Origin: an uncultured Pseudomonadales bacterium
Lineage (GTDB): Bacteria > Patescibacteriota > Microgenomatia > UBA1400 > PJMF01
Length of the DNA: 64,000 nucleotides
NCBI GenBank assembly: GCA_964393205.1
Contig: CAYMSV010000002.1
Location: forward strand, 28,078 to 92,077
Direction: 5' to 3'
Positions 7,808-25,499 of the stretch are shown here, piece after piece; positions within the stretch are counted from its first letter, which is position 1, and each line of letters starts with the position of its first letter. A program made the position numbers and the translations under genes. The notes beneath the pieces are model-generated. The model made no database searches. It saw only the letters and a program-made list of their open reading frames with translations, and was not told the DNA's origin.

Positions 7808-8803
7808 TCAACGCAAGTATTGATTTACATTAGCATTATGAACTTCAAGAGTGTTAGCTGTATGGATCTTCCCAGATAAGTCATGAATGTAATAAAAGGC
7901 GCTGGTTGACTGAGGATTAAGCACAGCTCTAATTGCACTTAGACCAGGGTTACAAATTGGCGAAGGAGGTAAACCAACTTCCTGATAAGTATTAAAAGGA
8001 GAATCTAGGTTTTTGTCCACTGCCAAAGGAGTTGGCCACCAAGTTTGTTCAGCCGCGCTATAGCCCCTTATATATTGCAGAGTTGCATCAACCTGCAAAG
8101 GCATGCCAATATCTAAACGATTGAATAAAATACCAGCTATTAAAGGCATTTCAGCCTCACTAGCACTTTCCCTTTGCACCAATGACGCGAGAGTTAGTAC
8201 TTGCTTTAAACTTAATTCTTCATCTTCTAAATCATCCTCCAAAGCTAAAACAATTTTACTTTCAAAGGTATTTTGTAAAAGATTAAGCAAGGCTTGAGTA
8301 TCAATACTCTTTGATACTAGATAAGTATCTGGAAACAGTTGTCCCTCTAAACCACTACTTAGCTCTAAAAAAACTTGCTCATCAAAAGCATTTAAATCTT
8401 GCTTAGAAAGACTAGCTGCTATTTCCTCGCGCCGCCAACCCTCTGGTAAAGTAATCCATAAATCATCAGTCCCTCTGGTTAAAGCTTGTGCTAATTCCCA
8501 AACTGATAAACTAGGTGATAGCTTGAATGAACCAGCCTGAATTTTGCTTTGTAAGCCTCTTTGATAAACTATTACCCTAAAAGCTAAACTAGAACGGATC
8601 AAACCTGCTTGACGAAGCCGCTGAGCAATTTGTTGGGTTGATTGTCCCTTAGGAATAACAAATGTAACAGTCATTTGATTACTAGTATCTACTGGCCTCA
8701 ATAAAGAAATAGCGATTATAACAATTGAAATAAAAGCGATTAAAACAGGCAATAGAACTAGACTGAGAACTTTGGTTTTTTTGGGAGATTGAGAACTTGG
8801 CAT
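7808..8803 (-). CDS. mltG: Endolytic murein transglycosylase MltG (YceG-like)
   Basis: N-terminal TM helix, then a YceG-like domain. Typical alaS-ruvX-mltG neighbourhood. Confidence 0.7.
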   Translation of the reverse strand: MPSSQSPKKTKVLSLVLLPVLIAFISIVIIAISLLRPVDTSNQMTVTFVIPKGQSTQQIAQRLRQAGLIRSSLAFRVIVYQRGLQSKIQAGSFKLSPSLSVWELAQALTRGTDDLWITLPEGWRREEIAASLSKQDLNAFDEQVFLELSSGLEGQLFPDTYLVSKSIDTQALLNLLQNTFESKIVLALEDDLEDEELSLKQVLTLASLVQRESASEAEMPLIAGILFNRLDIGMPLQVDATLQYIRGYSAAEQTWWPTPLAVDKNLDSPFNTYQEVGLPPSPICNPGLSAIRAVLNPQSTSAFYYIHDLSGKIHTANTLEVHNANVNQYLR

Positions 8804-8816
8804 GGAGAAACCTAGT

Positions 8817-9218
8817 CTAGCATAAATCTAAGTAGTTTTCGAGAATAAGTGCAGCAGCATAGTGATCAATAGCTTGACGTCTAATTTTCTTTGGTAATTC
8901 TCTAAGTCTCTGCTCAACTTCATAAGAAGAGAGTGTTTCGTCTATCATAATAATTTCCAAATCTAACAGAGATTTTAAATGATTAAAAAATTCAATTGTT
9001 TTTTTTGCCATTTTAGATTCAGAAACTCCAATGACAATTTTTTCTACTTTCTCTTCTTGAATAATTGCTTGAATTTCCTTTAAAGCTTGAGGTCCAATAG
9101 GCAAATCATTATCAATTAAATCATTTTTTACCACTTTTAGTGGTTCAGCTAAACCAACAAAAGAAATAGCTAGACCAATTCTTGCTAAACCATAATCAAT
9201 TGCTAAAACTATTGGCAT
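8817..9218 (-). CDS. ruvX: Putative pre-16S rRNA nuclease / Holliday-junction resolvase-like RuvX (YqgF)
   Basis: N-terminus MPIVLAIDYGLARIGLAIS matches the YqgF/RuvX RNase H-like motif. 133 aa. Confidence 0.8.
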   Translation of the reverse strand: MPIVLAIDYGLARIGLAISFVGLAEPLKVVKNDLIDNDLPIGPQALKEIQAIIQEEKVEKIVIGVSESKMAKKTIEFFNHLKSLLDLEIIMIDETLSSYEVEQRLRELPKKIRRQAIDHYAAALILENYLDLC

Positions 9219-9233
9219 TTCTAGTAGATTATA

Positions 9234-10190
9234 CTAGTCTTTTACTAATTGTGCTGTAATTATACCGCGGCGTAAAGTTGTACCCTCTGGGGTACAGGTA
9301 ACCAACTTTAACTGACGTACATCATATCGTTGAGCTAAAATAAAGGTATCGTCTGGTTTAACCTCTGTCTTGCTCTGCACAATATAAGTATATTTAACAT
9401 TGTCATGGGTTAAATATATTTTTTCCCCTCTTTCAAGCAACATTATCTTGCTAAAAATGGAAGCATAACGACGAGGATTATTTTCACTAGGATTATAAAA
9501 CTGGCGCAACACTGAGTGACCAAAAAGAACTGGTGCACCTAATTGCCCAGGTAAAGCAGTGCCGGGATAGTGAATTAAGCTTTGATTAAGATCTGTACCA
9601 CCCACTCTTACTTTAGCATTAATCACATTTAAACTAGGAATATCTAAAGTGTATTCAACGAATTGACTTTTATTTAACTCTGGTACTTCAAGATCACTGC
9701 TAAACCAATTACTTAAATCGGTGAAATCAAGTGCTTGATCTAAAATAACTGGGCCAAGATTAGCATTGTTATTTTCTTGCTCATCTTCAAAATCAACTCG
9801 TGCTTGAGCAGAAATAAGAGGTGTACTTAATAAGAGCTGGGAATGTGGAATTGGCGACAACAAAGCTAATTCTTCTTGTTTTTTCCAAGGCAAATAATAA
9901 TCTATTAATGGCCAAAGTGCAGATAAAGCCAAAATTAAACCAGTAACTATCAAGGCCAAAGGCAATAGAGTTGCTCCAACCCGAATTTTTTTTGGTAAGC
10001 GCTGCCAAAAACTTAATTTAATTTGTTTGTCTAAAACTTGCTCCTCTTTACGACTAACGGCATCCTGTCTTAAAAAATAATTAATTTTTTTATTTAAATC
10101 TTGGATCGCTACTCCATCTTTTAAAGCTTGGCGATAAAGCTTTAATAACTGTTTTTTTTGTAGAGTTGATTGAGAATTTTTCTTAGCCAT
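9234..10190 (-). CDS. Sortase-family transpeptidase (membrane-anchored)
   Basis: C-terminal catalytic triad signatures: GH in VLFGHSVL, Cys in KLVTCTP (TLxTC motif), then Arg (TLRRG). N-terminal TM segment LLPLALIVTGLILALSALW. Confidence 0.7.
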   Translation of the reverse strand: MAKKNSQSTLQKKQLLKLYRQALKDGVAIQDLNKKINYFLRQDAVSRKEEQVLDKQIKLSFWQRLPKKIRVGATLLPLALIVTGLILALSALWPLIDYYLPWKKQEELALLSPIPHSQLLLSTPLISAQARVDFEDEQENNNANLGPVILDQALDFTDLSNWFSSDLEVPELNKSQFVEYTLDIPSLNVINAKVRVGGTDLNQSLIHYPGTALPGQLGAPVLFGHSVLRQFYNPSENNPRRYASIFSKIMLLERGEKIYLTHDNVKYTYIVQSKTEVKPDDTFILAQRYDVRQLKLVTCTPEGTTLRRGIITAQLVKD

Positions 10191-10191
10191 A

Positions 10192-12432
10192 CTAATCTAT
10201 AATAAAGTTAAATCGAGAAGAATTTTTTGGTAAGCGCTGTATAAATTGAGTCAAAAAAGCTGGTTGATAGACTATTTTCACTTGGTTTATCAATTCTTTA
10301 TCTTCTAAATTATTCCTCGCTTCTTCTATATTTTTACCAAGCAATAAATCCAATAATGATTCTTCATCAATATTTGCTCTAGATCTAGCAGATAATTCTG
10401 TGCTCAAAATTAAACGATTACTATCATCTTCAGCTGGAACAGGCTGATCACTTAACAATGATGGTTCTTCGTCAACAAATTCATAATTTTCTGGTAAATC
10501 CATAAGTAAAACTGCCTGCGCTAACTGCTTCAAATCACTAGATAAATATTTAATAGCTTCAACCTCTAAGGTCATTTCTAAAGAAAGAGTTTCCACCTCA
10601 TCTCCCTCTTCATGATCATATTCAAAAGAGCTAATACGGCTGTTATTGCTTGGCACAAAATAAACCCCATCTCTAGATTCTTCAGTAAATTCATTGATAG
10701 CAATTTCGTTTAGACTCGTTCTCAACTGACTCAGTAAAGTTTCAAGATCCTCTTTGGAAACTACTCTCACTTCTCTACTAGAACCGCCAGAAAAATTATC
10801 AATAACTGTAGCTGAATAAGTATCTTCACTAAAATCACCTATTTTTAACTTACTATTTTTATCAATGTTCGCTTCTGCTCCAATATCTTTAGCAAGCAAT
10901 GTTGCCTCCCCACTTCCATAATCCATTCCACTACCACCTTCTTCTTCCTCAGCAGCTGCCACCGTTACCTCATCTTCCAATTCAAACGTTATGTCTTCAT
11001 ACTCAAAAATCGTACCAGCAGCAAAAGTCTTTTCACTAGAAGTTTTATTAAACAAATTAACATTCCCTCTAGCTTTATCTCCAACCAAACTAATACCAGT
11101 TGTACTTAATGTATCTTCACCACTAATTTCCTTTTTTACCAAAGATGCTTTTAGTAGATTTTGATCATAATTAGATTCAGTTACTTCTGGATCAAGAATA
11201 ATATCTAAATTCTTTTGTAAAACTTGTCTGTCTGCCTTAATTTCTATTCTCACCTTTGATAGAAAAAAACTAAAAACAATTAAAATAACTATCAAAGACA
11301 ATAATCCACTAATAATACCGATTATTAGAGATTTACGATTTTTTCTTAGGAAACGAGCTAAAGGAGTCATTTTCTTAAATTTTTCTGGTGTACTTATTGG
11401 TACTGGATTAGTTTTTTTGACAGGCTGCTCAGGCTTGAATTCTTTCAATTCTTCAGACTTAAAGTTGGTAAATTGAGATTTCTTATCTTCTTCTTTTTCC
11501 TTGATTTTATCTGAGGCTAAATCAATACCAAAACTACTAATCTTTTGCTTTTCGACTCCAATCTCTGTTTGATCTGACAAATTTTTTTCGAAATTAGTGC
11601 TTTGCTTGGCGTTTTCAAAAGCCGGCAAATCCTGATCAAGCTTAGATTCAAAGCTGCTTGATAACATATGGCCTGCTGCTAAACTTAAAGATTTAATTAA
11701 AAAATCTGTTTCCAAAACTATAAATTGTGGTGATTGTAAAAAGCCATCTACTTCTTTCCAATCAAAAGTTTGTAGCTGTGACTGTTCTTTTTTCAAAGAT
11801 TTTTGACTAAGATTTAGTGAAGTAAGAAAAAGTCTATTGGGAAAATATTTTCCTTGATCACCCAACTCTTGACTTACTCTAGCCAAACCTTCTCTTAAAT
11901 CATCGGTTAATTTGGCTGATCTGCCAATTTGTAAATTCAACAATAACTGACCGTGCTTAATTAAGATTAAATCAAAGTCTTTCTCTCTTAAATATACTGT
12001 CAAAGAAGAGTCACGAGGATCATTCATTGTTCTAGATTTATGAATACCTTCAACCACACTCATTTGCCCCAAAGCAGATAAACTCAAGCTTTCTGATAAT
12101 TCTTGAATTATCACTTTTTTACTATCTAACAACTCACCATCTTTTAACCAAGATTCGTCAAAAATAAAAACACAATCCGCTACATCATCGGCCAATAAAC
12201 CCAAATCCTGAAGTGATTGATCAAGTTGAACTAGTAGATCTTGGCGATCAAAATAAGTTTTTATAGAAGAATACTCTTTGATTTCTTGTTTTTTATTAAC
12301 CAAAGCGCTTTGTAGCTCTTGATCACTCAAAACTATGGAAATAAACAATTCTTCCTGATTTAAGTCCTCATCTAGACCTTGATTACGATTTTCTTTTGTT
12401 TTTTTGGTAAATTTTTTCAATAAGTTGGGCAT
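10192..12432 (-). CDS. Hypothetical bitopic membrane protein (cytoplasmic ~370 aa, one TM helix, acidic extracytoplasmic ~350 aa); stop/start-adjacent to the sortase
   Basis: 746-aa ORF with a single strong TM helix (LIIGIISGLLSLIVILIVFSFFL) in the middle. No recognisable catalytic motifs. Separated from the sortase gene by a 1-nt gap, suggesting translational coupling. Confidence 0.5.
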   Translation of the reverse strand: MPNLLKKFTKKTKENRNQGLDEDLNQEELFISIVLSDQELQSALVNKKQEIKEYSSIKTYFDRQDLLVQLDQSLQDLGLLADDVADCVFIFDESWLKDGELLDSKKVIIQELSESLSLSALGQMSVVEGIHKSRTMNDPRDSSLTVYLREKDFDLILIKHGQLLLNLQIGRSAKLTDDLREGLARVSQELGDQGKYFPNRLFLTSLNLSQKSLKKEQSQLQTFDWKEVDGFLQSPQFIVLETDFLIKSLSLAAGHMLSSSFESKLDQDLPAFENAKQSTNFEKNLSDQTEIGVEKQKISSFGIDLASDKIKEKEEDKKSQFTNFKSEELKEFKPEQPVKKTNPVPISTPEKFKKMTPLARFLRKNRKSLIIGIISGLLSLIVILIVFSFFLSKVRIEIKADRQVLQKNLDIILDPEVTESNYDQNLLKASLVKKEISGEDTLSTTGISLVGDKARGNVNLFNKTSSEKTFAAGTIFEYEDITFELEDEVTVAAAEEEEGGSGMDYGSGEATLLAKDIGAEANIDKNSKLKIGDFSEDTYSATVIDNFSGGSSREVRVVSKEDLETLLSQLRTSLNEIAINEFTEESRDGVYFVPSNNSRISSFEYDHEEGDEVETLSLEMTLEVEAIKYLSSDLKQLAQAVLLMDLPENYEFVDEEPSLLSDQPVPAEDDSNRLILSTELSARSRANIDEESLLDLLLGKNIEEARNNLEDKELINQVKIVYQPAFLTQFIQRLPKNSSRFNFIID

Positions 12433-12525
12433 ATTTTTTGAATAATAAAAAACTGGGTTTAGATTAACCCCTCAATTACATTAAAGCAGAGTTTTGCTTA
12501 ATTTTAAAGAACTGAGTATCTCTTT

Positions 12526-14430
12526 TTACCTAAAACGAATGTAAATTCTTCTGATTCCTTGTGCAACAGCTTTTTCTTTAAAAATCTCTAGTTCTCCAAA
12601 ACGCGCTATTTGCGAGGTTCTTTCCACATGAGGTCCACCACACAGTTCCTTAGATATCCAATCTTGTTCGTCACCTATAGTGTAAACTTTTACTCTCTCC
12701 GGATAGCGTTCAACAAAGAAAGCAATTGCTCCAGACTCCAGAGCTTTTTCTTTAGACATTGTTTCACTAGAAACCTCTAAATCAGCTTTAAGCCAATCAT
12801 TTAACAATTCTTCTATTGATTGAAGTTGCTCCTTCGTTAAGGCTTGATCATAGCTAAAATCGAAACGCAAACGATCCTTATTAATGTTTGAGCCCTTTTG
12901 CTCAAGCTCATCACCTAAAATTTTTCGCAGCGCAGCTTGCAACAAATGAGTGGCTGTATGAAATGCTGTATTTTTAACATCTTGATTTGCCAAACCTCCC
13001 TTAAATTTTTCCTGAGTAGTTTGACGAGATAGTTGCGCGTGTCGATTCTGAGCCTCAATAATTTTACTTTCAATTTCTTCTTCAATTGTTATGTTCCTAG
13101 ATTTTGCTTCCTCAATAGATAATTCAAAAGGAAAACCATAACTCTCATAAAGCTTAAAAGCTAGCTCAGCTGTCAGCTGATCTTTCTTAACTATTAAACG
13201 ATTAAATTCTTTTAAACCTCTCAACAAAGTCCTGTTAAATTTCTCTTCTTCAGTTTTTAAAACTCTATTGATTAAATCTTTTTTCTTTAACAAATCTGTA
13301 TAAAAATCCTGATAAAGCTTCAAAACTTCCGGCACAACTTCTATTAAAAAATTTTCTTTCAATTCTAAATACCTGGCTTGTCTTAATGATCGCCTAATTA
13401 AACGGCGTAATAAATACCCCTGCTCCTTGTTGCTGGGTAAAACCCCATCACTAATTAACATGACACTGGCTCGAATATGATCAGCAATAATACGAAAAGC
13501 TGGTTTAAATTTTGGATCTTGATAATCTTTAGCGCTCAATTCGACTAACTTATTAATAATACCCAAAAAAGCACTGCTTTGAAAAACATCCATTTGATTT
13601 TCTACTGCCGCTAATAATCGCCCCAACCCTCCACCAAAATCAATATTTTTTTGGTTTAATTCTTTAAAACCATTTTGAGTGAGTTGATATTGCATAAACA
13701 CACTGTTACCAATTTCCAAAAAACGCCCACAATCACAATTAATGTGACAAGCTTGTTTGGCAAAAACAGATTGTTGATGTATGTCAAAATCAGTTTCAGA
13801 AGCTGCAAAATCATAGAAAACCTCACTATCCGGACCACCCAATTCACCAACAGGCATTTTAGCCGGCACCCCAGACCTCGACCACCAATTTTTTTCTTCA
13901 CCATAAAAGAATATTCGACCCTCCTGCAAACCCAGTTGAGGATTATCAATGATTTTTGCTTTAACTCCTCTTTTTTCAAATAATTTTTGCCAAATATTAG
14001 CTGCTTCATTATCCTTAGGAATATTAAGCTTTTTATTACCTGCAAAAACTGATATGTAAAGACGTTCTGGTTTTAACTTTAAAACATCAACTAAGAATTC
14101 AAAACAAAAATTGATTTGTTCTTCTTTAAAATAGTCACCAAATGACCAATTTCCCAACATTTCAAAAAAAGTTGTATGGCGATTATCACCCACTTCTTCA
14201 ATATCTTCGCTACGAAAACATTTTTGTGAATTAACTATTCTTTTTCCATAAGGATGTTTCTGTCCAAAAAAATAAGGAATCATCGCCTGCATTCCGGCAC
14301 TAGTAAATAAAGTTGTAGGATCATTTTCAGGAACCAAACTTGCTGAAGGAACAACTGCATGATCTTTGGCAATAAAAAAATCCAAATATAAACGACGCAA
14401 ACTAGATAAGGTTAAAGAAGGTTTAGACAT
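12526..14430 (-). CDS. alaS: Alanine--tRNA ligase, short form lacking the C-terminal C-Ala domain
   Basis: Class II AlaRS N-terminal motifs (FTSAGMQ, KCFRSEDIE, FFEMLGNWSFGDYFK) and editing domain (HTATHLL...CGGPHV). Only 634 aa. Confidence 0.9.
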   Translation of the reverse strand: MSKPSLTLSSLRRLYLDFFIAKDHAVVPSASLVPENDPTTLFTSAGMQAMIPYFFGQKHPYGKRIVNSQKCFRSEDIEEVGDNRHTTFFEMLGNWSFGDYFKEEQINFCFEFLVDVLKLKPERLYISVFAGNKKLNIPKDNEAANIWQKLFEKRGVKAKIIDNPQLGLQEGRIFFYGEEKNWWSRSGVPAKMPVGELGGPDSEVFYDFAASETDFDIHQQSVFAKQACHINCDCGRFLEIGNSVFMQYQLTQNGFKELNQKNIDFGGGLGRLLAAVENQMDVFQSSAFLGIINKLVELSAKDYQDPKFKPAFRIIADHIRASVMLISDGVLPSNKEQGYLLRRLIRRSLRQARYLELKENFLIEVVPEVLKLYQDFYTDLLKKKDLINRVLKTEEEKFNRTLLRGLKEFNRLIVKKDQLTAELAFKLYESYGFPFELSIEEAKSRNITIEEEIESKIIEAQNRHAQLSRQTTQEKFKGGLANQDVKNTAFHTATHLLQAALRKILGDELEQKGSNINKDRLRFDFSYDQALTKEQLQSIEELLNDWLKADLEVSSETMSKEKALESGAIAFFVERYPERVKVYTIGDEQDWISKELCGGPHVERTSQIARFGELEIFKEKAVAQGIRRIYIRFR

Positions 14431-14452
14431 GAAATTATTATAACAGCCAAAA

Positions 14453-14809
14453 CTAAATACCTTTGAATTGATTCTTTTTTTTCTGTCTACGTAATCGCTT
14501 ACGAGTTTTTTCTTTATCTTTAGATCGCTCTAATTTTGCTAAGACCAGAGTTAAATTATCTTTAAATTCAAATAAGGAGTGTTTGAGCTGTAAAAAATAT
14601 TTATCTTTTATTTCTTCTAATGTTAGTTCTGGACTATCTATTAAATTTTTTTTGTATAAATCTGAGCGAGCAGACTCCCAATCCTTTGCCAACTTTTTCC
14701 AAGTTTGCTGACCCTGCTCACTGGAAAAATAAGTGATAGCAGTACCCAGAGAAAATCCTATAGCCAAACCCGATAAAAAGCCATTAGCTTGTTGCTTATC
14801 TTCAACCAT
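14453..14809 (-). CDS. Hypothetical protein, possibly YtxH-like (glycine-zipper N-terminus, lysine-rich C-terminus)
   Basis: 118 aa with GFLSGLAIGFSLGTAITY hydrophobic glycine-zipper segment followed by a charged coiled-coil-like region. Weak resemblance only. Confidence 0.35.
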   Translation of the reverse strand: MVEDKQQANGFLSGLAIGFSLGTAITYFSSEQGQQTWKKLAKDWESARSDLYKKNLIDSPELTLEEIKDKYFLQLKHSLFEFKDNLTLVLAKLERSKDKEKTRKRLRRQKKKNQFKGI

Positions 14810-15217: not shown

Positions 15218-15901
15218 TCAGTAATTTACTTGAATAGTTCGCTGAACCACACTTGTCTTGCCTCGTTCATCTGTGGCTTTAATTGTAATCGTGGCTGGTC
15301 CTTCAATATCATAATAAAGTTCAGTGTTAAAAAAACCACCAGCTTGAAGAGCCACTGGTTGTGCATTGACTAGAACAGTGGCATTCATTATTGTCTGACC
15401 TTCAACTACTACCCTAGCTGCGGTAAGATCTCCATCACTTGGTTGAAAAACTTCTAAACGTGGAGGTCTGTTCAGAGAAAACCATTGCCAAGTAGCGTAA
15501 CTCAGAAAAATTAAAAACACACTTGCAATAAATAGAAGAGTTAAGCGTACTGGAGAAAATAAATTTGCTTTTCTAAAAGAATCTCGCAAAAATTCTCTAG
15601 GTAATAAACGTCCCTTAGCGCTTTCTTGGTAATCTCTTCGCAAAATTGCCAATAGGGGACGTGGATTAACTCCAAGTAATTTAGCGTAGTTGCTGATATA
15701 AGCTTTAGCGTAACTAGCATTGGGTAAAACAGCAAAATTATTTTTTTCAATTGCCTCAAGATAATTAAGTTTAATAAAAGTTTTCTCAGCAATATCTTTA
15801 AGTTCTAAACCGGCTGCTTTTCGATGTTTAATTAACAAGTCACCCACAGTTTGTGTTTTAATCGTTTGGTTCATTAGGGCAATTCTAGAAAGAATTCTCA
15901 A
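15218..15901 (-). CDS. RodZ-like HTH (XRE-type) membrane protein
   Basis: N-terminal HTH (VGDLLIKHRKAAGLELKDIAEKT), central TM helix, C-terminal beta-rich domain. RodZ-like architecture. Confidence 0.55.
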   Translation of the reverse strand: MRILSRIALMNQTIKTQTVGDLLIKHRKAAGLELKDIAEKTFIKLNYLEAIEKNNFAVLPNASYAKAYISNYAKLLGVNPRPLLAILRRDYQESAKGRLLPREFLRDSFRKANLFSPVRLTLLFIASVFLIFLSYATWQWFSLNRPPRLEVFQPSDGDLTAARVVVEGQTIMNATVLVNAQPVALQAGGFFNTELYYDIEGPATITIKATDERGKTSVVQRTIQVNY

Positions 15902-16451: not shown

Positions 16452-17219
16452 TTGACTGGTAGCCTGTATTATAAAACAAAGCCTGACTTTTTAAAAAAGC
16501 AAAGTCAGTTGGCTGTCAATTTAAAAAACTACAATGCTTTGGTGAACAACTTTTCATTTTTTCACTGTTGGCAAGCTTATTTACTACCAGATTTTTGTCA
16601 AAACTGTCAAAGATTGGGACCAATGCTTTGTGAAAGTTGCTATCAATTAGTTGAATTTTTTTGGCAAGAAGATCTAGCAGCGTTTTTTGCCAAAAATTTT
16701 GATAAAAATTATTTTGACCAAATAAGAGTGATGGCTCGTTTTAAATCTCCAATTAGCTCCTTAATTAAATCATTAAAATATCAACATCATAGCCGAGCAG
16801 CTAAGTTTCTAGCTCAAATGTTGTTTTTCCACCTAAATATTAGTTACGAAAAATTTGACTTAATAACCTTTGTTCCTATTCATAATCAAAAAATTAAAAA
16901 AAGAGGATACAATCAAAGTCAACTTATCGCTGAGGAACTAGCTGTTTGGACTAAAAAGCCTTGTTTAAATTTACTAAAAAAAACTGTCAACAATACTGCT
17001 CAAGCACAAATTAGTGACAAACAACAACGCTTGCAACGACTCAATAATACTTTTGAAATTTCTCATCCTTATTCTCAACACCGACCCTTAAAAAATAAAA
17101 ATATTTTAATAATTGATGATGTAATTACTACTGGCGCCACTATAAATAGCGCCAGTCGTGTATTAAAAAAATATGGGGTTGAGTGGGTTTCAGTTTTAAC
17201 TTTAGCAGCTAATCTATAA
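16452..17219 (+). CDS. ComF-family phosphoribosyltransferase-domain protein (ComFC-like)
   Basis: N-terminal Cys-rich Zn-finger (C..CxxC...CxxC) and C-terminal PRTase motif ILIIDDVITTGATI. The ORF begins 1 nt after the tRNA-Val gene on the opposite strand, so the true start is uncertain. Confidence 0.65.
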   Translation: MTGSLYYKTKPDFLKKQSQLAVNLKNYNALVNNFSFFHCWQAYLLPDFCQNCQRLGPMLCESCYQLVEFFWQEDLAAFFAKNFDKNYFDQIRVMARFKSPISSLIKSLKYQHHSRAAKFLAQMLFFHLNISYEKFDLITFVPIHNQKIKKRGYNQSQLIAEELAVWTKKPCLNLLKKTVNNTAQAQISDKQQRLQRLNNTFEISHPYSQHRPLKNKNILIIDDVITTGATINSASRVLKKYGVEWVSVLTLAANL

Positions 17220-17289: not shown

Positions 17290-17691
17290 GGGGATGTATT
17301 GTATTGACGTCAGTCAACTTTAATCATTGCAGATCATCTTTGGTGAAAAGATGTTAAACAACACTAAAAAATAACTGTCAAAAACAGTTTTAAAACAGCA
17401 GTTAATAAAGTCGCCAGTCTTTTTGACTTTGGCTTCGTAGCTGCTCCTGCTTTTGCTTAATTGTAAAAGTAGGCATCTAGTGTTGAACTCTTATCGACGG
17501 TTCACATTAGGTGAAAACCTAGTCGATTAGCAGAAATAAAGAATCAGGTCACTTTATTTCCAAGAATTAGGCCTGGATGAAGCAAAAAAAGTTTGTCTAT
17601 TTACTTCTTGCTTCAAATCGAAAATAAACTAAATCTGTAGATATCGTTAAAGTCAGATTAGCGGACGCGGGAGCAAAACCCGCCATCTCCA
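17290..17691 (+). ncRNA. ssrA: tmRNA (transfer-messenger RNA, SsrA)
   Basis: 5' GGGGATG... pairs with 3' ...CATCTCC-A, forming an acceptor stem with a G3.U70 wobble (the alanine identity element). T-arm GCGGG-AGCAAAA-CCCGC sits at the 3' end. An internal tag frame GUC|GCC AGU ... GCU UUU GCU UAA (17413-17460) is preceded by an in-frame TAA and encodes ASLFDFGFVAAPAFA. The AAGUCGCC context resembles E. coli UAGUCGCA. About 402 nt; CCA is not encoded. Confidence 0.75.
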
Positions 17692-17770
17692 CAACAGCAG
17701 ATCCTTATCTAAAAAATCAGCACTATATTAAAAATAGTGATTTTCTATATCAAAAAATCTATGAAGTTGC

Positions 17771-18268
17771 TTAATTCTTGGATTTAAGTGTCAAACCTAG
17801 ACCAAACACCAATATTCCAAAAGCAAAAATTATAATTGTGTTCTCTAAAGCGCCTGATTCTGGCAAAGTTTCTTCGGTGGCTGTCTCAGCAGAAGGCGTA
17901 CTAAGGCTGGCAACTTCCGCTACATTTATAACTAAGTCTAAAGTTTCTCCACCAGAACTAACTACCAAATCATTTTCACCATAAGAAACTTCCCTAAAAT
18001 TAACTCCCCAATTTCCCTCAACGTCAGCAACAGTATCATTGTTTAAATCAGCAAGTGCTATCTGCACTTCAGCTGAAGGAGAGGCAGTTCCTGTTACTGT
18101 GAAAGTCGTTAAGGTAGTTTCATAAACTTTAACTGTAGACCCCAAACCAACAATAGAATCATTACCTCCTATAGCATCAATCGTAAGAGCACTGGCCAAT
18201 GCTGGCTTAATTAAAAAAATAAGTAAAAATAAAAAAAGTAATTGAAAAGTTTTTATCATTTTTTTCAT
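17771..18268 (-). CDS. Small secreted protein with C-terminal LPESG sorting signal (putative sortase substrate)
   Basis: Signal peptide (MKKMIKTFQLLFLFLLIFLIKPALA). C-terminal LPESG, then hydrophobic helix ALENTIIIFAFGILVFGLGLTL, then basic tail KSKN. Paralog of 24028..24537. Confidence 0.6.
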   Translation of the reverse strand: MKKMIKTFQLLFLFLLIFLIKPALASALTIDAIGGNDSIVGLGSTVKVYETTLTTFTVTGTASPSAEVQIALADLNNDTVADVEGNWGVNFREVSYGENDLVVSSGGETLDLVINVAEVASLSTPSAETATEETLPESGALENTIIIFAFGILVFGLGLTLKSKN

Positions 18269-18331: not shown

Positions 18332-20521
18332 TTATGAAAAACTTTTACTAGCTAAATATTCTTGAATCTTAACTCTAAAAACTTCTCTAGCCTTGCTACC
18401 CTGAGCAGGTCCGACAAAACCAGCCTCTTCTAGTTGGTCCAAAATACGAGCTGCCCGAGCATAACCCACAGACAAGTGACGCTGAATAGCACTAGAAGAA
18501 GCACTATCACTAGTACTAAATAACTGTGCTGCTTCATCAAATCTCTCATCTCGATCAGCCTCTCCCTCTACACTAACGCTAACGGAGCCTCCTACCCTGC
18601 TAACCTGATATTTATTAGTAATTTCTTCCTCATAATTTGGTTTTTTACCTCTAGATTTAAGAAAATCAATCAGTTGATCAATTTCTCTAGCATCAACGTA
18701 AGTGCCTTGAATACGTTGTGGTTTAGCTCTATTTGGAGATAAATAAAGCATATCTCCCTTACCTAAAAGTTTCTCTGCGCCAGGAGTATCTAAAATTACT
18801 CGACTATCAGTCACGCTCGAAACATTGAAGGCAATTCTGGTGGGCATGTTAGCCTTAATTAAGCCAGTGATTACATCAACAGATGGTCGCTGGGTAGCTA
18901 AAACCAAATGAATTCCTACCGCTCTAGCCATTTGAGCAATCCTAGTAACATTGTCTTCCACCTCTTTGGGAGCGAAAAGCATAATGTCTGCCATTTCATC
19001 AATAACAATCACAATATTTGGCATAGTGGCCAAACCAGCTAGCTCATTATAATCTCGAATACTTCTCACTCCAACATCTTCAAGCATTTTATAGCGCTTA
19101 GACATTAGCTCCGAAGCCCATTTAAGAGCCGACACCACTTTATCTGGATCAACAATGACTGGCGTTAACAAATGAGGAATATCTTTATATTTGGTCAACT
19201 CTACTCGTTTAGGATCAACCAAAATTAATTTAACCTCCTCTGGAGTGGCACGAAACAAAATGGAACACAAAAATGAATTAACACAAACAGATTTACCCGA
19301 ACCTGTGGCTCCAGCAATTAATAAATGGGGCATTTCGGCAATGTCTGCCACAATTGGTTTACCAGCTACATCAACTCCTAAACTAACTGCCAATTTTGAA
19401 GGATGTTTTTTTACCACTGGTGAAGATAGCATTGTCTTTAAGGGCACTATTTCAGCACTATGATTTGGTACCTCTACTCCTACCAAATTACGACCAGGAA
19501 TTGGTGCTTCAATTCTTACTTGTCCAGTCGGTGCTGCTAAAGCTAGAGCTAAATCAGTTGACAGCGCTGTAATTTTTGATAAACGAGTTCCTTTACTGAT
19601 ATCTAAAGCATACTGAGTAACTGCCGGACCAGGATTATATTCTGCAACCTTGGCGTTAATGCCAAAAGAATCTAGAGTATTTTCAATAACCTGAGCATTG
19701 GCTTTGACATCACCACGATCAGCTTTTGCTCCTCTCTCTACAGATAATAAAGACAGGGGAGGATAATCCCAAACCATTGGCATAGAAGAAGCATTGAGAG
19801 CTTCTTCTCCTTCTAAACCACCTGAAGATTTGGCAGCTTGAGTTTCTGCCTTGGTCAAAACAGCAGTACTACTAGTTTCATCAAGTTCGATTTCTTCATT
19901 AAAATCGGCTCCTCTCTTGAGAGTTTTCTTAGTAAAAGCTAATTTAGGAATTGAAAAGTGACGAGATTTTTTTATTTCTTTATCAGTTACATCTTCATCA
20001 ACAGATTTCAAACCTTTTTTAGCTAATTTCGCCTTACGACGATTGGCAATTATTTTGCTTAAACCATTAACTAAATCAGTCAAAGAACTCTGGGAAAGAA
20101 TTAAAAAACCAATTAAAGATAAGGAAGCAAACACTATATAAGCACCTATTGTGCTGATTAGTCTTGATAAATTATTGAAAATATTAATCCCAATTTCACC
20201 AGATCGAGATACTCCCATCACCCCAATCATCATTAAAATCACTCCGAGCAAAATTGTTGGCTTAGACCAAGCATGCTTGCTACGAATCATTACTAAACCT
20301 GAAGCAATAAAAACAAATGGTAAAAATAACATGGATAAGCCAAGTTTATCTGCTAAAAAATTGTTAAGAGCAATCAACCATTGTCCTTGTCCACTGAAAG
20401 AGACCAGCACCAAGCTACCAAACATAATTAGCAACACTGCTATTATTGAATAAGTGGTATCGGCTCGCATTTTTAAACGAATTGCTTTACGTTTTTTGCG
20501 ACGAGACTTTCTTTTTGCCAT
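18332..20521 (-). CDS. ftsK: DNA translocase FtsK
   Basis: N-terminal multi-TM region, Walker A GATGSGKSV, Walker B IVIVIDEMAD, and a C-terminal gamma (winged-helix) domain IQRHLSVGYARAARILDQLEEAGFVGP. Confidence 0.9.
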   Translation of the reverse strand: MAKRKSRRKKRKAIRLKMRADTTYSIIAVLLIMFGSLVLVSFSGQGQWLIALNNFLADKLGLSMLFLPFVFIASGLVMIRSKHAWSKPTILLGVILMMIGVMGVSRSGEIGINIFNNLSRLISTIGAYIVFASLSLIGFLILSQSSLTDLVNGLSKIIANRRKAKLAKKGLKSVDEDVTDKEIKKSRHFSIPKLAFTKKTLKRGADFNEEIELDETSSTAVLTKAETQAAKSSGGLEGEEALNASSMPMVWDYPPLSLLSVERGAKADRGDVKANAQVIENTLDSFGINAKVAEYNPGPAVTQYALDISKGTRLSKITALSTDLALALAAPTGQVRIEAPIPGRNLVGVEVPNHSAEIVPLKTMLSSPVVKKHPSKLAVSLGVDVAGKPIVADIAEMPHLLIAGATGSGKSVCVNSFLCSILFRATPEEVKLILVDPKRVELTKYKDIPHLLTPVIVDPDKVVSALKWASELMSKRYKMLEDVGVRSIRDYNELAGLATMPNIVIVIDEMADIMLFAPKEVEDNVTRIAQMARAVGIHLVLATQRPSVDVITGLIKANMPTRIAFNVSSVTDSRVILDTPGAEKLLGKGDMLYLSPNRAKPQRIQGTYVDAREIDQLIDFLKSRGKKPNYEEEITNKYQVSRVGGSVSVSVEGEADRDERFDEAAQLFSTSDSASSSAIQRHLSVGYARAARILDQLEEAGFVGPAQGSKAREVFRVKIQEYLASKSFS

Positions 20522-22955: not shown

Positions 22956-24020
22956 CTAATAGCTAGGTAGAAAAATCTTAACATTATCCGGACCTATAAT
23001 CACTTCTTTAAAACCTCTTTCTACAATAATTCGCGCGGCTTTACGCACCGCACCTTTAAGAGTGCGCTGCAATGTTCTCACTCCGGCATCAAAACCTAAA
23101 GGACGTACTAGCGTTGGCCAAATAGCCTCATCAATCTTAAACTGATTTTCTTTTAAGCCAGCTTCTTTCATAACACCTGGCAAAATATACTTTTTTGCAA
23201 TCACAATTTTCTCTTCGTCACTATAAGAAGGCATATCAATTCGCTCCATACGATCAATTACTGCTGTTGCAATACGTCTAGTATTATTACAAGTAGCAAT
23301 AAAAATAGCCTGACTTAAATTAACTGGATAATTAATATAGTTGTCTACAAAGGCATGGTTCTGAGCAGGATCTAATAGTTCTACTAAAACCCCCATAATG
23401 TCATTGTTAGCTTCATCAGCAGCTCGATCAATTTCATCTAGTAAAATTACGGGATTCATTGTCTTAGCTTCACACAAACCCTGAATAATTGCCCCTGGTT
23501 GAGCTTCTAAAATTAATCTTGATTCTCCACGTAATTCTTTAGCAGATACCATACCACCAATAGGAATACGCAATATCTGTCGTCCCAATGCTTCTGCTAA
23601 AGAATAAGCAAAAGTGGTTTTTCCAGTTCCCACTAAACCAACTAAAAGTAATATTGGAGCAGAAAATTCTTGATTGGTAAAATTTTGTTTTTGTAAATTA
23701 AGAATTGCTAAATATTCTAAAAAACGATCTTTAACCTCTTTTAAACCATAATGATGTTTATCAAAAATCGCTTTAGCCGCCTGAATATCCAGTGTATCTT
23801 CACTCTTTTGAGCAAAAGGGATTTTGATCACCCAATCTAAATAACGAGAAACTTTGTCATATTTTTCATCATAATTTCCCAACTTAACGCTACGTTCTAG
23901 AGAAACTAATTCTTTTTTTAGTTTTAATAACAGTTCTTCTGGTAATTGAATCTGTTCAATTTTAGCTCTTAACTCGTCAAGTTCCTGATTTAAAATTTCT
24001 TCAGAATTAATTTGAGACAT
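22956..24020 (-). CDS. Lon-like AAA+ ATPase module lacking the N-terminal (LAN) and C-terminal protease domains
   Basis: Collinear with LonA residues ~230-590: coiled-coil, then HYGLKEVKDRFLEYLAI, Walker A GLVGTGKTT, Walker B ILLDEIDR, sensor-2 region DAGVRTLQRTLKGAVRKAARIIV. The ORF ends where the S16 protease domain would begin. Start taken at the internal ATG (MSQINSEE) to avoid overlap with the upstream gene. Confidence 0.7.
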   Translation of the reverse strand: MSQINSEEILNQELDELRAKIEQIQLPEELLLKLKKELVSLERSVKLGNYDEKYDKVSRYLDWVIKIPFAQKSEDTLDIQAAKAIFDKHHYGLKEVKDRFLEYLAILNLQKQNFTNQEFSAPILLLVGLVGTGKTTFAYSLAEALGRQILRIPIGGMVSAKELRGESRLILEAQPGAIIQGLCEAKTMNPVILLDEIDRAADEANNDIMGVLVELLDPAQNHAFVDNYINYPVNLSQAIFIATCNNTRRIATAVIDRMERIDMPSYSDEEKIVIAKKYILPGVMKEAGLKENQFKIDEAIWPTLVRPLGFDAGVRTLQRTLKGAVRKAARIIVERGFKEVIIGPDNVKIFLPSY

Positions 24021-24027
24021 AAAAAGA

Positions 24028-24537
24028 TTAAAATTGCTTTGCTTGAAGTGTAAATCCCAGTCCAATGCTTAACATTGCTAAGGCCAAAAACAAAATAGTA
24101 GTAGTAGTTGAACCAGCTTCCGGCAAAGTATCTTCAGTACTACTAATCGTAGCTTCTTCAGATTCTGTTGCTTCAGCAACCTCACCAATAGTTAAAACGA
24201 AATCTAATGTTTCATCTCCAGATTCTAAATTAAATTGATGATCACCTTCAGCCAAAGATGAAACCAAGTTTGTCCAACCCCCTTCTGCATCAGCTGTCGC
24301 TGTTTGAGTTGAATCGTTAATCAAGATAGATATGGTAGCAGAGGGAGAAGCTAAACCAGTTAATTCGAAAGTTCCACCAGAATAAGTATAACTTTTCAAG
24401 CTTCCTCCCAGATCTAAATCAGACACATCCATAGCTCCTAAACCAGTGATTTGCAAAGAAGAAGCTAAAACCTTTTGAAAAAAAAGCAAGGGAAAAGCGA
24501 GTAATAACAATGTAGTAACAATTAAAATTTTTCTCAT
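24028..24537 (-). CDS. Small secreted protein with C-terminal LPEAG sorting signal (paralog of 17771..18268)
   Basis: Signal peptide. Shares SGG..L.G.ASPSA...I...D...AD.EG.W and G.ETLD.V..I.EVA blocks with the LPESG protein. C-terminal LPEAG, then hydrophobic segment STTTTILFLALAMLSIGLGFTL, then QAKQF. Confidence 0.6.
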   Translation of the reverse strand: MRKILIVTTLLLLAFPLLFFQKVLASSLQITGLGAMDVSDLDLGGSLKSYTYSGGTFELTGLASPSATISILINDSTQTATADAEGGWTNLVSSLAEGDHQFNLESGDETLDFVLTIGEVAEATESEEATISSTEDTLPEAGSTTTTILFLALAMLSIGLGFTLQAKQF

Positions 24538-24560
24538 ATATCCTATTCAGTCTAGCATTT

Positions 24561-25499
24561 TTATTTTTTTTGCACAGCTAGTAATTCCAACATTTGATTA
24601 CGACGTAATAAACCAGTTTTACCTCCGTAAAACCTCACAACACTGCTTGCATTACGAACTCCCCAAACAATTGCCTCCTCCACCTTTCGATTATCCAATA
24701 GAGCAGCAATATAGGCAGCAGCAAAAGAGTCGCCAGCACCTGTATTGTCTACAGCACTACCAGATTGCCCCTCATAAATAAATTTCTTTTTACCATACAA
24801 GTAGACTTCTCCACCTTTCTTACCCATAGTCACAATTACTTGTGGAAAATGAGCTAGAATTTCTTCCTGAACTTCAGCTAACAACAACCATTCCTGTTGA
24901 TTAACAAAAAATACTTCACAGGGAATTTTATCTAAATCAAAAGTTCTATTTACCAATAGCTCTATTTCACTTTTACCAGGATTCCATGATAACTTAGTGT
25001 CTTGGTCTTTGATTAAACTATTAAAAATTTTCAACAAAGTATTTTTTTGACCAGCAATACTAGATAAGTGAACCCAACTGGCTTGAGTTAACCAAAAAGA
25101 GGGAATGTCATAAGGGTCAAGCATTGAAGCTGCACCTCGATGAGTCATGGCTACTCGATCTCCACCTTTAGTTACTAATAGCACACTTCCTCCAGTTCTT
25201 TCTAATTTTTCTCTAATCAGTAACTGTGTACTGACACCCTCTCGTTCAAAATCTCTCACTATTAAATCAGAAAATTCGTCATGACCAGTTTCAGAAATAA
25301 CTGCCGTTTTATAACCCAAACGAGCTAAAGCTACTGAAGTATTACTGGCTCCACCACCAGTGAAAATGTGGAAATCATTTAAATCTAATTTGTCTCCATA
25401 AGTCAAAACATGTTGTTGTTTGTTACGATCAGTCTCTAGATCTTTAGAGCTAATAAAAATGTCAACTAGTGAAGATCCAATGCTAATACAATCGTACAT
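24561..25499 (-). CDS. PfkB-family carbohydrate kinase (ribokinase-like)
   Basis: GGGASNTSVALARLG and C-terminal DNTGAGDSFAAAYIAAL (anion-hole/GAGD) motifs. Confidence 0.8.
   Translation of the reverse strand: MYDCISIGSSLVDIFISSKDLETDRNKQQHVLTYGDKLDLNDFHIFTGGGASNTSVALARLGYKTAVISETGHDEFSDLIVRDFEREGVSTQLLIREKLERTGGSVLLVTKGGDRVAMTHRGAASMLDPYDIPSFWLTQASWVHLSSIAGQKNTLLKIFNSLIKDQDTKLSWNPGKSEIELLVNRTFDLDKIPCEVFFVNQQEWLLLAEVQEEILAHFPQVIVTMGKKGGEVYLYGKKKFIYEGQSGSAVDNTGAGDSFAAAYIAALLDNRKVEEAIVWGVRNASSVVRFYGGKTGLLRRNQMLELLAVQKK

Follow-up and report, generated by a model that had tools for sequence, protein, structure and literature searches.

A small Ig-like protein with an LPESG sorting signal, a probable sortase substrate of Pacebacteria

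Results

The locus and the anatomy of the protein

The window analyzed here is a 64,000-nt stretch of DNA with 35% G+C (contig CAYMSV010000002.1 of assembly GCA_964393205.1, positions 28,078 to 92,077). On its reverse strand, between ftsK and the tmRNA gene, lies the gene of interest, and some kilobases away on either side are a sortase gene and a paralog of the protein (Table 1). The open reading frame confirms the preliminary description of a 165-residue product with a signal peptide, the pentapeptide LPESG, a hydrophobic helix of 22 residues and the tail KSKN. The signal peptide, MKKMIKTFQLLFLFLLIFLIKPALASA, was read by eye; it has the n-, h- and c-regions of a Sec-type leader – a basic start, a hydrophobic core and an AxA-type site – and is followed by LT, so that the predicted cleavage would be ASA|LT. 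In the homolog alignment A1, the Ala at -1 (A27), L28 and I30 hardly vary, if at all. Toward the other end the sequence runs ...TEETLPESG. The L, P and G of a sortase pentapeptide are all present, as are the hydrophobic segment and the positively charged tail that should follow them; the Thr that the canonical LPXTG signal has at position 4 is found neither here nor in the paralog.

Table 1. Features of the locus (positions are those of the window unless another locus is named).
Feature	Position	Strand	Description and basis
Sortase gene	9234..10190	-	318 aa: N-terminal cytoplasmic region, hydrophobic anchor (~72-95), catalytic domain (182-316); PF04203, 69.8 bits
Membrane protein gene	10192..12432	-	746 aa, directly upstream of the sortase gene; no significant Pfam match
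tmRNA gene	17290..17694	+	Rfam; 3' end 76 nt from the stop codon of the LPESG protein gene, the two convergent
LPESG protein gene	17771..18268	-	Secreted Ig-like protein, 165 aa, ATG start, C-terminal LPESG sorting signal; ORF list, homologs, AF2 model
Basic tail	17771..17785	-	KSKN + stop codon; ORF and homolog alignments
Hydrophobic membrane-retention segment	17786..17851	-	ALENTIIIFAFGILVFGLGLTL, 22 residues (140-161); AF2 helix 140-164; kept in all full-length homologs
Pentapeptide LPESG	17852..17866	-	Residues 135-139, reverse complement TTG CCA GAA TCA GGC; putative sortase cleavage Ser138/Gly139
Linker (stalk)	17867..17914	-	Residues 119-134, Ser/Thr/Ala/Glu-rich; pLDDT 33-60; length and sequence differ among homologs
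Passenger	17915..18187	-	Residues 28-118, Ig-like beta-sandwich; AF2 model
Predicted signal peptide	18188..18268	-	Residues 1-27: MKKMIK / hydrophobic core / PALASA; inspection, AF2 helix 2-19
ftsK	18332..20521	-	Ends 63 nt upstream of the LPESG protein gene, same strand
pfkB / Lon-lid AAA+ locus of the family	22956..25499	-	Synteny; also at 9023..11590 of L001, and in L085 and L086
Paralog gene	24028..24537	-	169 aa: signal peptide, Ig-like domain, LPEAG (24112..24126), hydrophobic segment, QAKQF; 40% identity to the LPESG protein, E 4e-29

The gene was said to lie directly beside that of tmRNA, and with the Rfam placement of the latter it does. Nothing supports a functional link between the two, which converge. 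The programs differ over the 5' end of the tmRNA: Rfam places it at 17290 and ARAGORN at 17175, where the call overlaps the 3' end of a comF-like ORF (16452..17219), and for this reason the tag peptide given by ARAGORN (…FGFVAAPAFA) needs to be treated with caution.

The suggestion that this gene closes the transcription unit of ftsK is compatible with the sequence. The shared strand, the short gap and the lack of any terminator-like site between the two genes agree with it, and co-transcription with ftsK is plausible on such grounds, but the linkage does not extend beyond close relatives. Our scan for promoters and terminators found 6 promoter-like sites where shuffled sequences had 4.2±2.1, and 0 terminators, numbers that cannot decide the matter. 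The order ftsK, LPESG protein gene, (tmRNA), comF is retained in four close relatives (loci L002, L003, L004 and L006), and, more distantly, no family member follows ftsK in at least eight loci that include its 3' end. Distant members of the family (P0013, P0071 and P0128) sit instead between pfkB and the Lon-lid AAA+ gene, which is the position of the paralog. The gene next to ftsK is therefore a recent, lineage-specific duplicate of a deeply conserved one. At the pfkB locus, the Lon-lid AAA+ ATPase appears to be without a protease domain, and the 3' end of the paralog runs 38 nt (24028..24065) into the AAA+ ORF as counted from its listed TTG start.

The protein family and its sorting signal

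The paralog ends in ...TEDTLPEAG STTTTILFLALAMLSIGLGFTL QAKQF and has weak Pfam matches to Gram_pos_anchor and Big_13. The preliminary description had allowed that no other protein of the genome might share an LPE[S/A]G C-terminus; the paralog does share it, complete with the transmembrane segment and the basic tail. These two are the only ORFs that a six-frame scan of the whole window found with the motif, a run of hydrophobic residues and a short tail. When 1.36 Mb of related DNA was scanned more permissively, LPxxG-type matches were likewise confined to this same family, and the related genome L002 has one LPESG copy, one LPQAG copy and a sortase.

Of 14 close homologs (55-100% identity), every one but a single truncated entry finishes with LP[E/S][S/A]G, then a hydrophobic segment and then K-x-[K/R]-N. 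One homolog, P0014 (127 residues, 70% identity, Pacebacteria MAG GX943), ends ...VAEVASMSTVDD and lacks the end of the linker and the sorting signal; truncation of the gene, decay into a pseudogene or a form that is released rather than anchored could each account for it.

When 1.84 billion representative sequences were searched with a profile, there were 879 matches, of two kinds. The first comprises about 40 small proteins of 154-200 residues that match end to end and all have the same plan; public records label this family "hypothetical protein". The second consists of giant multi-repeat adhesins that share just the Ig-like module (residues ~52-108). In an alignment of 43 sequences (A2), with 21-89% identity to the LPESG protein, only four columns are invariant and there is no conserved stretch of 7-10 columns. 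One of the four is the Gly of the pentapeptide (G139), and P136 is more than 90% conserved.

Among 40 non-redundant relatives, reaching down to ~21% identity, the first position of the signal is L in 34 and the second P in 37; the third is variable (V/E/Q), the fourth is S in 16, T in 13 and A in 11, and the fifth is G in all 40. After this Gly there follows a median of 28 residues, among them basic ones and a hydrophobic stretch. The linker upstream cannot be aligned, its length and sequence drifting freely across the family, so that what is conserved is specifically the motif.

The pentapeptide had been called non-canonical. This is right with respect to LPXTG, and Firmicutes offer precedents for a Ser or Ala at position 4; here, given the nearly even division of the family among S, T and A, the Ser is better viewed as one expression of a lineage-wide relaxation to small residues. 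Moreover, Ser and Ala replace each other between close relatives (LPESG in P0008, LPEAG in P0009) and between paralogs of one genome (LPESG and LPEAG in the window, LPESG and LPQAG in L002). If each genome has one sortase, as does the 64 kb of sequence covered here, that enzyme would have to accept both. With a lineage motif of [L/M/V]-P-x-[S/A/T]-G, it follows that the enzyme would accept any small residue at P1, the acyl donor position.

The constraint extends somewhat past the pentapeptide: among the same 40 relatives the Gly is followed by x-x-E-x-T (E in 18, T in 32) and then by the hydrophobic segment. This G-[S/A/G]-x-E-x-T pattern reaches into the start of the hydrophobic segment and may belong to what the enzyme recognizes.

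Such a sequence could also end an ordinary type I membrane protein with a C-terminal anchor, the helix being permanent and LPESG an unprocessed structural hinge. The architecture by itself fits this equally well, position 4 is not Thr, and the models for sorting signals all score below threshold: Pfam Gram_pos_anchor (PF00746) has no match to the LPESG protein at E<=10 and reaches 15.5 bits with the paralog (cutoff 20), while the sole sortase-related match of the LPESG protein in the NCBIfam scan is to the EF0750_LPXTG family, at 12.8 bits against a cutoff of 47. However, a hinge would hardly keep a Gly invariant and a Pro nearly so, at constant spacing to the helix, among proteins of ~21-30% identity, while the linker next to it drifts. 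The residues that are kept, L, P and G, are precisely those common to all sortase signals, and a sortase is encoded nearby. We consider the membrane-anchor interpretation unlikely. The tripartite architecture of a sortase substrate, as the preliminary description had it, is supported by both the sortase gene in the window and the family-wide conservation of the pentapeptide.

The passenger domain

With the 43-sequence alignment, AF2 gave a model of the protein with a pLDDT of 88 overall and 90-97 across residues 30-118; it replaced an earlier model, made with a shallow alignment of 16 sequences, whose pLDDT was 60. The model has an eight-strand Ig-like beta-sandwich, then a disordered linker and then the C-terminal helix, so that the "small beta-rich domain" first described, for which an Ig-like or a pilin-like fold had been considered, turns out to be Ig-like by both the model and its fold matches. 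The latter are generic Ig-like modules, including those of carbohydrate esterases, domain B of glucodextranase and S-layer proteins; no pilin structure is among the matches listed. A profile search of PDB sequences matched the repeats of Bap and MpAFP (E 1.5e-5 and 4e-4), and the family profile matches multi-repeat adhesins at E values down to 1e-55. In the Pfam and NCBIfam scans the Big_6, Big_13 and Ca_tandemer (NF033510) models all scored below their cutoffs.

The giant adhesins, which come from other phyla (P0015-P0162), are up to 7336 residues long with up to 41 Ig-like repeats. Their termini are phylum-specific: LAFTG followed by a transmembrane segment and RRRR, LPQTG, Cys-containing CTERM-like tails, or a T1SS-like "...DDDITNVVI". 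Since these giant homologs carry the signals of their own phyla, the passenger module is portable, with the C-terminus following the anchoring machinery of the host. An Ig-like domain also occurs elsewhere in the window: a RodZ-like protein (15218..15901, reverse strand), with HTH_25 and a transmembrane segment, has a C-terminal Glucodextran_B domain (E 5e-8).

The sortase and its genomic context

The sortase gene is on the same strand as that of the LPESG protein, 7.6 kb away, and there are no other sortase-like sequences in the window. Its product matches the Pfam sortase domain end to end over residues 182-316 (PF04203, cutoff 26.6 bits, E 2.3e-19). The catalytic triad of H225 (in FGHSV), C299 (in LVTCTPEG) and R308 is invariant in 20 homologs of 51-87% identity (alignment A3), and solved sortases of classes A, C and D match at E ~1e-5 in a PDB search. 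The enzyme nevertheless falls short of every NCBIfam class cutoff from A to F and GN – for example E 36.6/160, C 35.9/160, D 34.2/165, F 17.5/166 and GN 14.4/158 (bits/cutoff) – and scores 38.5 with the general sortase_fam model, whose cutoff is 39.35. In public records its close homologs are named "sortase [Candidatus Pacebacteria bacterium]". The N-terminal part is unusually long, with a cytoplasmic region of ~65 residues, in which Y19, R20, A22 and E50 are invariant, and a linker of ~85 residues before the catalytic domain.

Searching with the sortase alignment, we found 80 related loci (20 kb each) in MAGs of Pacebacteria, Paceibacterota, Woesebacteria and Patescibacteria. The gene order alaS, 746-residue protein, sortase, ruvX, yceG/mltG (7808..14529 in the window, reverse strand) is retained across Pacebacteria: the 746-residue membrane protein is beside the sortase in all 80 loci (L005-L084), at identities down to ~25%, with ruvX in 78 and yceG in 75. 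The stop codon of the membrane protein gene abuts the sortase start, and from this association the protein may be a partner of the sortase. Within 10 kb of these 80 Pacebacteria sortase genes we found no substrate families other than the one described here, so the motif preference ascribed to the enzyme is drawn from one protein family. As to the records themselves, a large number of the Patescibacteria-type contigs bear the title "uncultured Pseudomonadales bacterium", others being labeled Limisphaerales, Methylococcaceae, Vitreimonas or "candidate division TM6" (CP011212); such titles look like taxonomic mislabels.

A sortase and a small Ig-like substrate also bring to mind a pilus, in which the enzyme would polymerize the subunits head-to-tail into a covalent fiber, as with class C. 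The protein is small, has one Ig-like domain and a sortase signal, and occurs as two paralogs per genome, and one account describes Ig-like pilins as hard to recognize by sequence (10.64898/2026.03.03.709456). Yet the sole Lys of the mature domain (K47) is outside the conserved columns of the 43-sequence alignment, so there is no conserved pilin-motif nucleophile. The fold matches listed name generic Ig-like modules and no pilin, the class C model is missed by far, and the genes are not clustered with that of the sortase. For lack of a conserved Lys and of a pilin fold we have rejected a sortase-polymerized pilin, which seems to us very improbable.

Another enzyme, encoded elsewhere in the genome, might process the signal: an exosortase, an archaeosortase, a rhombosortase or some protease of another kind. 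The VPDSG-CTERM signal, for one, bears a superficial resemblance to LPESG. Although several systems do combine a C-terminal motif with a transmembrane segment and a basic tail (10.1101/2023.06.07.544157), and although our inventory of enzymes covers 64 kb of the genome, we regard such a processing route as extremely improbable, given that none of the corresponding signal families (PEP-CTERM, PGF-CTERM, GlyGly-CTERM) appeared in the NCBIfam scan at E<=10, that the conserved L-P-x-x-G is the sortase pattern, and that a sortase is not only present but deeply conserved in the lineage.

Discussion

A proposed pathway to the cell wall

From the predicted export signal, the conserved C-terminal motif and the accompanying sortase, we think it quite probable that the LPESG protein is a Sec-exported, sortase-dependent cell-wall surface protein of an ultra-small Pacebacteria (CPR) bacterium. 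The protein would be exported by Sec, with removal of the signal peptide, and would then be held in the membrane by its C-terminal hydrophobic segment and KSKN tail. There Cys299 of the membrane-anchored sortase (9234..10190) would attack the Ser138-Gly139 bond of LPESG, giving a thioacyl intermediate, and an amine of a peptidoglycan precursor would resolve it, leaving the protein covalently attached to the wall. A peptidoglycan acceptor is to be expected, since the window encodes both a class A PBP (Transgly + Transpeptidase) and YceG/MltG. What would be displayed is a single Ig-like module of ~90 residues on a Ser/Thr-rich stalk of ~20 residues, the module acting either in adhesion or, perhaps, as a spacer.

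Relation to known sortase systems

The LPXTG proteins of Firmicutes and Actinobacteria, the substrates of class A sortases, are similar in having a signal peptide, a passenger, a pentapeptide in which L, P and G are present, a hydrophobic segment with a basic tail in the last ~30 residues, and a His-Cys-Arg sortase in the genome. They differ at position 4, where Thr is near-invariant in them, whereas the protein described here has Ser, its paralog Ala, and its family S, T and A in roughly equal shares. Different too are the anchor models, which score below cutoff, the host, which belongs to the CPR (Pacebacteria), and the enzyme, which fits no class A-F model.

Signals with Ser or Ala at this position occur sporadically in Firmicutes, for example the LPxSG of Enterococcus faecium PrpA (PMC4682149) and the LPXSG and LPXAG surface proteins of S. 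haemolyticus, which were detected at the cell surface (PMC7137321). These are isolated exceptions in LPXTG repertoires; in the Pacebacteria proteins S and A together make up the majority across a whole conserved family, and a single genome has both. A closer parallel to the specificity is a laboratory product, the evolved S. aureus sortase eSrtA(4S-9), whose specificity is for LPEXG with A, C or S as X (PMC9126251, PMC8248031). The two signals of the window both match its LPE[S/A]G exactly, but that enzyme was engineered with nine mutations, whereas the Pacebacteria one is no more than a distant relative (class A structures match at E ~1e-5) with a specificity predicted from sequence.

With respect to the passenger, the resemblance in sequence profile and fold is to the BIg repeats of giant adhesins such as Bap, SiiE, MpAFP/MpIBP region II and Lap. 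These have tens of modules and are retained by T1SS, in contrast to one module and a sortase signal in the protein described here.

A sortase family has been found in over half of CPR genomes and in nearly all of those of Microgenomates (PMC6744442); CPR sortases are also mentioned for a Microgenomates genome (PMC7143001) and for Peribacteria (PMC4736985). In the searchable literature we found no description of the substrates or the recognition motif of CPR or Pacebacteria sortases.

Significance

Mechanistically this is textbook material, and there are precedents for the motif variant; what is described here is, more modestly, an unannotated and widely conserved Pacebacteria variation on a known sortase mechanism. 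One could go further, although we put this forward as a tentative and rather doubtful proposal. The Pacebacteria/Microgenomates sortase might constitute a distinct class with a natural LPx[S/A/T]G specificity, the counterpart of the laboratory-evolved LPE[A/C/S]G enzyme, and the small Ig-like family, retained at its fixed pfkB / Lon-like AAA+ locus in genomes of less than 1 Mb, might be the principal, possibly dedicated, substrate of that enzyme. The protein would then be a core component of the envelope, perhaps a wall-anchored adhesin with which the ultra-small cells make contact with their hosts.

A natural sortase that accepts both LPESG and LPEAG, if this is what the enzyme is, could serve as an orthogonal ligase with a specificity that had earlier been evolved in the laboratory (PMC9126251). 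For the organisms themselves, the rule [L/M/V]Px[S/A/T]G plus transmembrane segment plus basic tail lets the cell-wall proteins of uncultivated Pacebacteria be annotated, and such a lineage-specific sorting signal provides a testable handle on the poorly understood CPR envelope.
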